Source: Eledone cirrhosa
Taxonomy: Eukaryota
DNA length: 64,000 nt
Reading direction: 5' to 3'
Assembly (NCBI GenBank): GCA_964016885.1
Contig: OZ024745.1
Span: forward strand, 86,800,001 to 86,864,000
Both the position numbers and the translations under genes were made by a program. Positions 23,886 to 30,770 of this stretch are shown here, one piece after another (the first letter of the stretch is position 1; each line of letters starts with the position of its first letter). A model generated the notes under the pieces. That model saw only the letters and a list, made by a program, of their open reading frames with translations, did not search any database and was not told the DNA's origin.

Positions 23886-24869
23886 ATGCTTTCTTTTAAT
23901 ACTCTATGAAATATTGAAAGTAATAATTATAATGACACCATCTATTTACGTTTATATGAATAGACATTAAAGAATTCTTTTAGTTTCTATTAGTTGACGT
24001 TGTTTCAATGAAAATTTCCTGCAATATCTTGTCAGTCTTCAATATATTTGGCGTATCACAAAATATTTTTTTGTATTAGAAACGCCTACAACAATGCATT
24101 GATTTATATTGTGAAAACCTTGAGCATGGCTCACCAAGATATATCTGGCATAAAATTATTGAAGGTAAAACTATGAAATTTATTCATATATTCCGTCTTA
24201 TTGGTAGAAACATTTTGTAAATAAAATCAGCTGTATTTTCTATTGTTCAATATATTTGCATTGATTAGTTAAGTTTGTTCAATTCCCTGTACTGTTTTCT
24301 CTCCAATACAACTAATTGAATAAACTGGAATGGTTTACTCTTATCTGCGCAAATAATTCGAAAGTTTTAATCAATGTCTAAGGTTATTCTTATTTAGTTT
24401 CAACATACACATACTCACACATGAACATATACACGTACATATATATATAAGCATATATATATATAAGCATATGTATGTATACACACGCACACACACAATT
24501 TGGCTCAAGAAGTCACATTCGCACACAGACAAAGGTTTATTATTATTTCAATCTCTTTTCATTTCATCTTACGTGTTTGAAGTCATGCTTGTCTTCCGTA
24601 ATGAGGAAGGAAAATTATATATATATATATATATATATATATATATATATATATATATATATATATATATATATATATATATATATATATATATATATAT
24701 GTATATATATATATATATATATATATATATATATATATATACTTAAGGTAAATATTGATGCAATTCAATTCAAGCACTCAACGCACCTTTTCCACATAGG
24801 AGTGACGGAGTATATATCGAATAAGAAAAAGCGAAGTAGTTTCAGATGTTAAAGTCATTTAATGATAAT

Positions 24870-24943
24870 GCTGTGATACATATTTCAATGACGACAGTGG
24901 CCACACGGTTCGGTGCGCCAGTGCCGTGACATCATCAGACAGC
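24870..24943 (-). ncRNA. Type I hammerhead ribozyme (long stem II)
   Basis: gctgt-CTGATGA-tgtcacggcactggcgcaccgaaccgtgtggccactgtcgtcatt-GAAA-tatgta-TC-acagc. Stem I is a perfect 5 bp. Confidence 0.8.
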
Positions 24944-27326: not shown

Positions 27327-29330
27327 GTGTAAATTTAGATGGGAACAAAACAGAGAGGCAGACAAATAAAGGTTTATTAGCTTCACCCTCTTGAGAGTGG
27401 GGAGGGGGGACGTTTCGGGCTTAAGCCCTTCTTCAGGAGTAAATAGGTTAGGAAGAGAGTTTCGAGGGTGTGTGGAAATACATTTATATAAAAGGGGGAA
27501 GGAGAACAAATAAAAATAAAAATAAACGTAAAAATAAACATAAGAATAAACAATAAGATGAACAAGTGGTGGAAGGGTGTGAGGCGTGTAAGGGTGGTGG
27601 CGGGTGGAGTTGGGAGAGGGAGGCGGGGGGTCGAAGCGGGGAAGGCTGATGGTGGTGCTCGTGTATGTGTGTAGGTGTTAGGGGGAGGGATGTTAGTATT
27701 GTTAGTTGTGGGAGGGCCGAGGGGTGTCGGACAGAGAGAGAGTGGCTGTTGGGACCATCGAAGGTGGTGGTGTTGGTGATGTGGGGGCAGGTGTGGCAAC
27801 GAGGCCTGGAGCAGGGAAGTGAACCGGGGGTGGGGAAGAAGAGCGTGGATTGGGGGGTAGAGAGCTGTGGACGAGGAGGGTGCGAAGATTGCGTGCGCGT
27901 TTGAAGGAGGGGAGGGGTGGGGATGGGAAGATGGGGGAAGTGGAGGGGTCGGAAGAGGCGGAGGATGGTGCGGTGAAGGGTTAGGGTGGAGGGGTGGTAG
28001 GTGATGGGGAAGGGGAGACGGTGGGTGGGTGCGCGGTGGTGTGGGGTGAGAGCGGTGGAGCTGTGGACAGCACGGGCGCGAGTGAGGGCGGTGTGGACGA
28101 GGGAGGGGGGTAACCTCGCCGGATGAAATGGCTGACTAGGGAAAGGGCTTGGGACTCAAAGTCAGCATCTCGGCTGCAGAGGCAGCGGACCGGAGGAGTT
28201 GGGAGTAGGGAATAGAGTGTTTAGTGTGTGTAGGGTGGGAGGAGGTGAAGTCAAGGTAGGAGTGGGAGTCGGTGGGTTTGAAGAAGGCGGAGGTGACGCG
28301 GGAGCGGTAGAAGGGGTCGAGGGCGATGGAGATGTCTAAGAAGTGGACGTGGGTAGTGGAGATAGAGGTGGTGAAGTGGAGTGAGGGGTGGAAGGAGCAG
28401 AAGAAGGAGAGAAAGGAGTCGAGCTGTTCTCGGGTGAGGGTCGTGGCTCCGATGCAGTCGTCGATGTAACGACCGTACAGTTTGGGCGTGGGGCCGGTGT
28501 ACTGGGCAAAGATTTGGGCCTCAACATGGCGAGCGAAAAGGTTGGCATTAGTTTGAGCCCATTCTTGTGCCCATGGCTACCCCCTTGACCTGTTGGTAAA
28601 ACTCACCCGAGAAGGAGAAGCAGTTGAGGGTGAGGACCAGCTCGGCGAGGCGAAGGTGGGTGGGGGTGGCGTGGATGGAGGTGTGTGAGGGCGAGGTAGT
28701 GCCGGAGAGCACGTAGGCCGTCGGCGAGGGGGATGACAGTATAGAGGGACTGGATATCTAGGGTGAAGAGGATGGGACGTGGGCCGCGTGGGAAAGTGAA
28801 GGAGTCGAACAGGCGAAGGGCGTGGTTGGTGTCGGAGATGTGAGAGGGGAGGGTGGTGACGAGGGGGGCGAGGGTGGAGTCAAGAAAGGCGGAAATGAGT
28901 TCGGTGGGGCAGTTGCAAGCAGAGACGATGGGGCGGCCGGGGTTGTCAAGTTTGTGGAGTTTGGCAAGGAAGTAGATAGTAGGGGTGCGGGGGGTGCGCA
29001 CCATGAGGTGGGAAGCGGTGGGAGGGAGGAGGAGACAAGGTGTTTGATGTTGGAGGAAACTTGTTGTTGGTAGAGGGGTGTGGGGTCAGAGAGTAGAGGG
29101 CGGTAGAAGTGGGGGTTATGGAGCTGCCTGAGGGCTTCAGCCGTGTAGAGGTCAGCACGCCACACCACCACGGCGTCTCCCTTGTTCGCCGGTTTGATGA
29201 CGATGTCATCTCGGCTACGGAGGGAGCGGAGAGCGAGGAGTTCGCCGCGTGAGATGTTATTCCGTTTGGAACGGTGGCGGAAGTCGAAGCGATTTACTGC
29301 GCTACGGCAGGCGTCAACGAACGTGTCCTG
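27327..29330 (-). mobile_element. 5'-truncated Penelope-like element (Neptune-type), RT pseudogene, GIY-YIG missing
   Basis: IVIKPANKGDAVVVW, PGRPIVSACNCPTE, LFTLDIQSLYTVIP, RYIDD, HFLDI, FFKPTDSHSYL...SSHP, linker PCSRPRCHTCPHI, then a pLTR with an HHR core. Confidence 0.92.
27409..27440 (-). ncRNA. Minimal HHR core in the PLE pLTR (stem I unpaired)
   Basis: CTGAAGA-a-gggc ttaa gccc-GAAA-cg-TC. The flanks do not form stem I. Confidence 0.6.
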
Positions 29331-30770
29331 GGACTTCCAGTGTGTGTAATCCATCCCCATGGTAGAGGGAATTTCCGGGAGTAGCTGATGGCTGGTTCCT
29401 CTCTTCTCCACTATATCGGTTACACCATAGAGCACTCAACGTTTTGGAGCTAAATTCTTAAGGTAAATATTGATCCAATTCAAGCACTCAACGCACCTTT
29501 TCCACATAGGCGTGACGGAGTATATATCGAATAAGAAAAAGCGAAGTAGTTTCAGATGTTAAAGTCCTACCATGGGGATGGATTAAACACACTGAACATC
29601 CCTGGTACTGGACGGACATAAAATTATAAACTAACTTTCGACAGGATAAATACGCTGAAATAAAAGCAATATAAAACCCCTATATTCCTGCAGCAAATTG
29701 TATTTGCACAGAGGCCTTGAACAGAAGCCCCCTCACTTCACCAGATAACAAATCTTTATATGGATAAATTGACAATCACGTTAACCACGTATACCCTCAT
29801 TTCAATGCTCGTATATATATCTCCTATCTCATTTTACATATGTATCTCATTTTGCATCTATGTATTTTATGTATTATTTGTATTTTGTGTTTTATTCCAT
29901 CTGATAGAGATATTAACTATGTATTCGCCTCATTACTACGTTCGATACTGTACGATACTATCGTTCAATATGTGGATAATATATCTTTAATATTGATCTC
30001 CCTTTCAAAACTTCTTAAAATAATTTAAACATCTCCCTATTTATTAGTGATTATATCTACATATATTTCTTTACTTACTTCAATCTAGATTCCAACATGT
30101 AATTTTTTATTTGTTTTAAAATTTTCGTTTTTTAATTTTTAATTTTTAATTTTTAATTTTTAATTTTTAATTTTTAATTTTTAATTTTTAGTTTTAATTT
30201 CCAACTCTCATTCATAATCTTCACTGTGAAAACATAATTGTTTCTACTTTAGGCACAAGGCCAGCAAAAACACCCAGTGCATTACTGGTAAACATAATAC
30301 CTAGAAATAAGTATATTTTCTCTTAGCGGGCGATGGTCAATTCTACTGTCCATGCTTAACTTAGAGGTAGTATTGAGACCTATTGATACTCATACTCTCC
30401 CACCCCCACTGGTTTTCGGCCGGCTAGCAGTAAACTATAACCGTGTCATATTACAGGCTGGATGGGGTCAATGTTTGGGGGGGGGGGGGTGTGTGCTGCC
30501 TAGACTTGTTTCGTAGACCTCTGTGGTAGTTGATGGTCAACTTCCTTCGGACCTGCGCCTGCGCAGACTGGTGCGGGTGAATTGGGACTCACAAGGGAAC
30601 GGGCGAAGAACCCAAGTGCACACGATTTATCCGTTCCCATGTCGATTCAATTTGGATTGCCTCGGAAACATAACCTTATTATGTATCAAGCTGTCTGACG
30701 ATGTCACGGCACTGGCGCACCGAACCGTGTGGCCACTGTCGTCATTGATATCACAGCATTATCATTAAAT
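29330..30770. mobile_element. Non-coding HHR element, locus 2: 5' ~235 bp inverted (29330-29567, -) plus remainder (29568-30768, +)
   Basis: Homologous to 25398-26579. The HHR at 30690-30757 is damaged (CTGACGA; GAAA/stem III partly deleted). Confidence 0.85.

Follow-up and report, generated by a model that had tools for sequence, protein, structure and literature searches.

What kind of element scatters direct and inverted partial copies of one long non-coding sequence, with a hammerhead-like ribozyme motif near its end? This question is raised by two neighbouring loci in a 64,000-nt stretch of the Eledone cirrhosa genome (assembly GCA_964016885.1, contig OZ024745.1, positions 86,800,001 to 86,864,000 of the forward strand; the whole stretch is called the window below). 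The original prediction had seen in these loci an unusually large hammerhead element with a fixed breakpoint, copied from circular or multimeric RNA. We find that the repeated sequence is best explained as a 1.38-kb non-coding, high-copy retroelement that has a predicted type-I hammerhead-like motif and the insertion hallmarks of Penelope-like elements (PLEs), and that was likely copied in trans by a PLE protein with reverse transcriptase (RT) and GIY-YIG domains. We give this reading a probability of about three in four. Copying in trans by PLE machinery is the most likely mechanism because the hallmarks of PLE insertion are present: partial tandems, inverted 5'-truncated neighbours, tails that end at two sites, and a bias toward (TA)n targets.

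The complete unit is 1,377 nt long, and all unit coordinates given here refer to one complete genomic copy (L011:1501-2877). In the window, the direct copy of locus 1 is shortened to 1,183 nt. The repeats of the unit within the window are not due to chance, as self-comparison by BLAST gave E-values of 1e-46 to 0. The features of the two loci are as follows.

24736..25406, minus strand: locus 1 inverted arm, 5'-truncated, unit nt 812-1376 plus a long tail (nt 2-122), with (TA)n directly at its 3' end
24736-24856, minus strand: long tail within the locus 1 inverted arm, unit nt 2-122, across the unit junction
24870..24943, minus strand: hammerhead-like motif of the locus 1 inverted arm
25398..26580, plus strand: locus 1 direct copy, begins at unit nt 1; about 180 nt (unit nt 990-1166) missing relative to the full unit
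26494..26567, plus strand: predicted type-I hammerhead-like motif of the locus 1 direct copy
26580..26626, plus strand: locus 1 short tail, unit nt 1-47, across the unit junction, then (TA)n
27301..29332, minus strand: older, decayed GC-rich PLE; RT frame frameshifted, internal deletion; 3' end at (TA)n near 27301
29330..29567, minus strand: locus 2 inverted 5' piece, unit nt 1-226; joins the old PLE at a microhomology
29567..30769, plus strand: locus 2 direct copy, unit nt 191-1376, no tail
30238-30290: 52-nt fragment of a short interspersed nuclear element (SINE) inside the locus 2 direct copy
30690..30757, plus strand: defective hammerhead-like motif of locus 2; CUGACGA present, a 6-nt deletion hits GAAA and helix III

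Much of what had been predicted for these loci holds within the window. The same sequence, GGACTTTAAC, opens the direct copy at 25398-26580 and, on the minus strand, the piece that runs from 29567. The predicted AUC cleavage triplet lies at 26560-26562, followed by 17 nt (26563-26579) before the next unit starts at 26580. The direct copy of locus 2 halts at the junction, as had been claimed: its 3' end at 30769, ...ATCATTAAA, is the last base of the unit, and TA-rich DNA and a SINE come next. Two segments do read through the junction into the start of a following unit, namely the short tail at 26580-26626 and the long tail on the minus strand at 24736-24856. At locus 2 the 5' part is inverted, such that unit nt 1-226 stand beside a direct copy that starts at nt 191, and the two pieces meet head to head with a 36-nt overlap. 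This arrangement resembles twin priming, a model described for LINE-1 inversions: locus 2 has an inverted 5' segment, a direct 3' segment, and a microhomology, CCC(T/A)GG.AC, at the outer joint, where the inverted 5' piece joins the flanking DNA.

To place these two loci among their relatives, we used three reference-based searches of the 3.0-Gb genome, with the whole unit (3,010 first-look candidates), nt 1-122 (912) and nt 123-228 (510) as references. The best-scoring 40 candidates of each search were used, and removal of overlaps left 113 distinct copies, or "arms", at 67 genomic places; the end-point statistics below are based on these 67 places rather than on all copies. The 3' end is visible in 111 arms. 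It lies at nt 105-125 in 46 and at nt 29-50 in 38 of them, while only 3 arms end at nt 51-104, 2 at the junction itself, and 22 internally or at an interruption. There are thus two recurrent 3' ends, at about nt 47 and about nt 122, both beyond the unit junction. These, and not the 1377|1 junction that had been proposed as the preferred start or stop site, are the recurrent points of the family. The fixed breakpoint at the junction is accordingly a property of the window: genome-wide, one of the two arms that end there is the window's own. A run of (TA)3 or longer was found within 30 nt of the 3' end in 44/46 long-tail and 26/38 short-tail arms, against a background of 10.1% of 30-nt windows, a figure taken from the 64-kb window only. 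When loose ends of contigs were followed (three runs, one sample), (TA)n again came after the short tail, and the same contig ends led to sister families that share the unit's last ~37 nt.

Among the 113 arms are 35 head-to-head inverted pairs, with inner gaps of -6 to +32 nt. Pairs of the same tail class number 0, and 21 of the 22 scorable pairs consist of one short-tailed and one long-tailed arm, the remaining pair having tails of 39 and 62. Examples of the mixed type are the window pair itself (24736-26626), L102:1501-1688 and L110:1443-1620. Partners within one locus are 98.8% (L011) and 97.5% (L003) identical, whereas copies at different loci have a median identity of 89.8% and a 95th percentile of 94.3%. 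That partners can be so much more alike fits a single event that makes both arms. Conservation is uneven along the unit: columns in the last ~230 nt and the first ~122-130 nt are ~90-99% conserved, and the body is ~83% identical between copies. In several short pairs, both inner ends lie at the identical unit coordinate (1365/1365, 1368/1368).

The 5' ends behave differently from the 3' ends. They are scattered across the whole unit, and the majority lie within its last 180 nt and so belong to very short copies. Near the junction, where 115 instances were curated by eye, a start exactly at +1 is confined to the window's two arms. The other 5' ends are spread from about -40 to +15: genuine starts were found at about -40, -31 (twice), -17 to -19, -15, -10 to -9 (three arms), -3, +8 (twice), +13 and +15. 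In the mini-copy L024, the 5' end is 1-2 nt away from the predicted cleavage site. With starts scattered in this way, there is no sharp genome-wide 5' hotspot, neither at +1 nor at the predicted cut. Three more specific accounts of 5' ends were set aside. Transcription starting at +1, with an AT-rich box above it, fits poorly with the scatter of 5' ends near the junction. For an HDV-like ribozyme cutting at +1, the best P1 helix found by eye is mismatched and there is no Rfam match, although no proper descriptor search was made. Finally, an excess of 5' ends at nt 222-229 was considered as the junction to an open reading frame (ORF) and is rejected as such, because the sequences upstream of these ends are unrelated.

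How closely do these copies resemble known PLE insertions? The latter are described as heavily 5'-truncated and often partially tandem, forming pseudo-long terminal repeats (pseudo-LTRs), often with an inverted 5'-truncated copy at the 5' end; they have a tail of 30-40 bp, often at one end only, and in some clades a bias for (TA)n (PMC8557442, in part; here and below, "in part" marks a source compared in excerpt). In vitro, the anole PLE protein nicks and extends both strands, and reverse transcription starts at two internal RNA sites whose spacing equals the tail (PMC11167929). The unit family shares with PLEs its 5' truncation, partial tandems, inverted 5'-truncated partner, one-end tail, two RT start points, (TA)n targets, and hammerhead motif in the repeated end (PMC8557442, in part; PMC11167929). 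It differs in that the unit has no RT/GIY-YIG frame, that no autonomous element of matching ends was found, and that its tail extension is ~75 nt (nt 48-122) rather than the 30-40 bp reported (PMC8557442, in part). Because the structures of the copies are those of published PLE hallmarks, the anatomy of the window is a known PLE signature on a non-coding unit. The unit therefore defines a new large non-autonomous family within the PLE/retrozyme world, and not a new kind of element. No published description of this family was found in the literature searched.

The end of the unit contains the motif that had attracted attention in the original prediction. Within the conserved part of the unit, a 5-bp helix I comes first, then CUGAUGA, a long and irregular hairpin, GAAA, a helix III of 2 bp and finally AUC. 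In the direct copy of locus 1 the parts are as follows.

26494-26498, plus strand: helix I, 5' strand
26499-26505, plus strand: CUGAUGA
26551-26554, plus strand: GAAA
26562/26563, plus strand: predicted cut
26563-26567, plus strand: helix I, 3' strand

We aligned 47 copies of the motif, 8 of them from diverged sister families. A 20-nt word from sister-family contigs has 22 exact genomic matches, as compared with 0 for a reversed control, and the twelve loci used (L059-L070) carry a module corresponding to the unit's last ~150 nt plus the tail at ~70-77% identity. In the alignment, the type-I order and the complete core are present, and CUGANGA, GAAA and the AUC site are conserved to at least 90% where they are not invariant, with the free position N7 varying between U and C. 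Overall, 79.4% of cells are paired (10-61% in slid controls), with 93.2% in helix I, 98.9% in helix III and 70.3% in helix II, which has 5 covarying pairs. Changes on both sides of a pair were counted in 15 cells, as against 6.1 in shuffles, and 0/500 shuffles reach 15. In one subfamily, N7 changes from U to C together with the helix II pair 10.5/11.5, which changes from A-U to G-C. We therefore agree with the original prediction that the unit carries a hammerhead-like motif, with a core that is conserved even in sister families and a helix II that covaries; from sequence comparison, it is predicted to be a non-canonical PLE-style hammerhead. The sister families at L059-L070 have AATAAA directly before the unit start, where the unit has ATTAAA.

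A hammerhead motif in a non-coding unit immediately suggests a retrozyme. Under this hypothesis the hammerhead would cut RNA longer than the unit, a ligase would circularize the 1.38-kb monomers, and rolling-circle reverse transcription would give copies that span the junction. The element would then be the largest animal retrozyme, a circular 1.38-kb RNA copied by the RT of an AT-rich PLE family into (TA)n, with starts at nt 122 and nt 47 on opposite strands. In line with this, the motif has a complete core that is conserved across sister families, the sequence continues over the unit junction without a break, and two copies start close to the predicted cut, L024 at 1-2 nt from it and L087 roughly at it. 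Moreover, 14 of the 87 fully visible arms exceed one unit plus tail, the longest being 2,239 nt (~1.6 units); in L011, for instance, unit nt 726-1377 are followed by nt 1-1377 and then by nt 1-39. Templates longer than the unit must therefore have existed, and to this extent the original prediction is supported. A circular RNA as a more-than-unit template of PLEs had itself been put forward in 2014 (PMC4209133, in part). Nothing in the data needs a circle, however. No arm is longer than ~1.6 units and no multi-unit array was found among the 113 arms, whereas the arrays described for animal retrozymes can reach tens or hundreds of units (PMC7229834 and the 2026 preprint 10.64898/2026.07.22.740005, both in part). 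No clustering of 5' ends is found at the predicted cut; ribozyme mutants of the anole PLE insert like the wild type, and no reads terminate at the cleavage site (PMC11167929). Junction-spanning copies are equally accounted for by the terminal redundancy of nt 1-122 together with template switching, or by read-through. We consider a true retrozyme, whether in the general form or as this largest animal member, unlikely; a circular RNA template is possible, neither required nor supported by the copies.

A second possibility is that the unit is a long pseudo-LTR, that is, the 3' non-coding sequence plus 5' leader of an autonomous PLE whose ORF-bearing copies are unsampled or extinct. We note that the original prediction had recognized this alternative: were an RT ORF to lie upstream in full-length copies, the unit would be only a long pseudo-LTR. 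There is such a frame in the window. On the minus strand, the inverted piece of locus 2 continues in frame into a frameshifted RT-like frame (29332 to ~27725), which is 33-44% identical to an intact PLE protein of the same genome (E 7e-25). Similarity between the window and the nearest genomic copies of this GC-rich PLE begins at 29332 and extends only downward from there. All 39 other GC-rich PLE copies that were scored fail to span the joint between unit and PLE in the window, and upstream of the point equivalent to 29332 all 39 carry conserved PLE sequence that is unlike the unit. Because the other PLE copies continue differently upstream, the RT ORF in the window belongs to a flanking older PLE and not to the unit. 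The joint falls within CCC(T/A)GG.AC, which is common to the unit (around nt 225-235) and the PLE. The window thus shows a piece of the unit joined to an older PLE at a microhomology, as internal (twin) priming predicts. The refuting observation is accordingly absent: the RT ORF is that of an unrelated older PLE, and among the loci sampled no ORF-bearing copy that shares the ends of the unit was found.

The unit itself also lacks coding remnants, as had been claimed. None of its nine frames of at least 45 aa matched a Pfam family, and tblastn with five to seven PLE proteins, including two from a second family, gave no match in the unit, so the search for residual PLE coding that had been suggested came back empty. 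Having no RT/GIY-YIG ORF, the element is non-autonomous. In 26 of the 30 loci that hold nt 133-228, the sequence passes from nt 228 directly into the unit body. Of the other four loci, one is the window, two have internal deletions, and the last departs from the unit after 45 nt. A PLE frame adjoins the unit in 0 of the 29 non-window loci, and no PLE frame was found within 1.5 kb of the 12 sister-family loci. The idea of a pseudo-LTR draws on three observations. PLEs of this genome have non-coding 3' regions comparable in length, as in the AT-rich family, where ~1.4 kb downstream of the ORF turns up again in inverted and direct partial copies; the unit contains an ATG that opens a frame of 19 codons at nt 197; and 5' ends are mildly in excess at nt 201-300 (9/87 arms). 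The last two would both fit the scar of an internal deletion. Against it, and besides the absence of coding remnants and of adjacent frames, copies with a start at nt 222-229 border on unrelated DNA or (TA)n, the tandem junctions are seamless and have no ORF between units, and the sole adjacent RT frame is that of a PLE whose other copies differ upstream. We regard a pseudo-LTR of an autonomous PLE as somewhat more doubtful still than a retrozyme. That the anatomy arose by rearrangement of DNA (segmental duplication, inversion or repeat recombination) instead of retrotransposition is very improbable: a flank shared by both window loci at 95.9% identity (336 bp) does mean that some local duplication occurred, but the two plus-strand copies in the window are mutually only ~82% alike, and copies of this anatomy lie scattered over 67 places, where 3' ends are defined, 5' truncation is graded and the targets are microsatellites.

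If the unit is copied in trans, which element supplies the protein? The driver is probably one of the genome's abundant autonomous PLE families, of which there are at least two. A GC-rich family gave 15,398 first-look candidates, and an AT-rich family gave 25,373 and has many open frames of 775 aa; these frames score 28.7 bits for RVT_1, just below the cut-off, and 27.3 bits for GIY-YIG, above it. One locus connects the unit to the AT-rich family. At L005:2600-2680 (= L071:711-800), an arm of the unit and a 5'-truncated arm of an AT-rich PLE form a hybrid head-to-head pair with no spacer, and the joint lies within the 9-nt sequence CCAATTCAC that is carried by both the unit and the AT-rich PLE. 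On the basis of this one hybrid locus, the AT-rich family, with its intact 775-aa RT+GIY-YIG frames, is the best candidate for the driver.

Two further features of the AT-rich family may be mentioned here. At L084:1788-6450, a second open frame, 410 aa long and without a Pfam family, lies upstream, and the 3' end has the ~1.4 kb of non-coding DNA of which inverted and direct partial copies recur. By eye only, the 3' end of the AT-rich PLE (CTTTTTCTTTATA then (TA)n) looks like the short-tail end of the unit.

With trans copying by PLE machinery as the preferred reading, the following course of insertion can be proposed. A PLE protein would bind RNA that extends beyond the unit junction, and its endonuclease would nick a (TA)n microsatellite. 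RT would then start inside the RNA at ~nt 47 or ~nt 122, as it does at two internal sites in vitro for the anole PLE. If both DNA strands prime, mirrored arms would result, one short-tailed and one long-tailed. Early stops of RT would leave 5' truncations, and read-through or template switching over the terminally repeated nt 1-122 would produce copies longer than the unit. Locus 2 could be a twin-priming variant of this course, with internal priming at the microhomology in the old PLE copy. The hammerhead-like motif may process longer-than-unit RNA.

Several results weigh against this reading, and they fall into three groups. The first concerns the driver. No autonomous element that shares the ends of the unit was found, and a profile of the conserved 3' module, compared with the PLE loci sampled, met only one inserted unit fragment. 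The hybrid at L005 would fit one event with two templates, but stands alone. When the unit junction was locally aligned with the junction of the AT-rich family, the similarity was not significant, as 16/300 shuffles did equally well. The second group concerns the motif. The closing pair of helix II (10.1/11.1) is unpaired in 40/47 copies, and pair 10.4/11.4 is C opposite C in 46/46. The counts of covariation overstate the number of independent events because the copies are related. RNAalifold predicted zero pairs from the 47-sequence alignment, and folding energies are no better than those of shuffles (z -0.17 to -1.36). The hammerhead models of Rfam gave no match at the gathering score or at E up to 10; this test is weak because it also missed two canonical-looking minimal PLE hammerheads nearby. 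The third is the sampling itself: the best-scoring candidates are not random draws, and two of the three samples were picked for carrying nt 1-122 or nt 133-228.

Where, then, does the family stand among the elements to which it is most similar? It resembles the metazoan non-LTR retrozymes in being non-coding and AT-rich, with a type-I hammerhead-like motif, in co-existing with PLEs, and in its presumed dependence on them (PMC7229834, in part). It differs from them in size. At 1,377 nt, the unit compares with about 150-450 nt for metazoan retrozymes (170-400 in PMC7229834, in part) and with consensus sequences of 51-972 bp in the 2026 preprint 10.64898/2026.07.22.740005 (in part), which bears out the earlier claim that the unit is the larger. 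Its copies are dispersed and at most ~1.6 units long, as opposed to long tandem arrays (PMC7229834, in part), and its hammerhead is of the PLE style, with a minimal helix III and a long helix II. Expression as linear and circular RNA is a further trait of the retrozymes. Among the non-coding derivatives of Chlamys elements in Chlamydomonas, such as MRC1, we find the same combination of pseudo-LTRs, head-to-tail copies and mobilisation by PLEs (PMC8557442, in part). Elements of the MRC1 type have 3' ends in common with identified autonomous families and are without canonical hammerheads (PMC8557442, in part), whereas the unit has no shared-end partner that we could find, has a hammerhead-like motif, and resides in an animal.

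The motif, for its part, is closest to the minimal hammerheads of PLEs. In these, helix I is short, helix II is long and has an unpaired base at its foot, and helix III is minimal (PMC4209133, in part). The unit has the same type-I order, a 5-bp helix I, a 2-bp helix III, and a helix II that is longer than usual and irregular at its base, and the motif is likewise placed in the repeated end (PMC4209133, in part). Unlike in the minimal hammerheads, helix II is ~17 bp long and irregular with a conserved C-C mismatch, and positions 10.1 and 11.1 are both unpaired in most copies where the minimal hammerheads have one bulged base (PMC4209133, in part).

As a genome feature the family is otherwise ordinary; its value lies in what it can say about PLE integration, which is poorly understood and has been studied in a single in vitro system (PMC11167929). 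With hundreds of insertions to score, a non-coding family of high copy number turns constraints on this process into things that can be counted: two sharp 3' ends, a different-tail rule in 21/22 mirrored pairs, and one hybrid with a 9-nt microhomology. Such constraints could test whether both arms originate from a single ribonucleoprotein, and which PLE family drives non-coding hammerhead repeats. That PLEs drive these repeats has been proposed in the literature compared, without demonstration there. The family also extends the size range of hammerhead-bearing animal parasites of PLEs beyond the 972 bp reported.

Other features of the window and of the sampled loci touch these subjects less directly. 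The two minimal hammerheads mentioned above lie between the loci, at 27186-27224 on the plus strand (CUGAUGA-A-GGAC..GUCC-GAAAC-GUU) and at 27409-27436 on the minus strand (CUGAAGA-A-GGGC..GCCC-GAAAC-GUC). Neither was reported by Rfam at E up to 10, and they are parts of two distinct elements that point their 3' ends at each other within one (TA)n tract. Downstream of locus 2, a tRNA-like SINE (30772-30964) sits inside the last 13 nt of the unit, flanked by 15-nt direct repeats at 30757-30771 and 30965-30979; the window has 24 matches to this SINE. At L026 and L146, the 3' end of the SINE stands immediately before the same ATTAT(C/T)ATTAAA as in the window, which suggests that this insertion site in the end of the unit is recurrent. 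After the tail-less end of locus 2, short pieces of the unit from -30 to -12 (AATATGTATCACAG-like) are reiterated at 30980-31035, and similar reiterations are found at L128 and L002; they may be traces of template slippage. Beyond the (TA)n, both loci are followed by the shared 336-bp flank (26640-26975 and 31055-31396), which occurs twice within the window and has a near-palindrome of ~185 nt inside.

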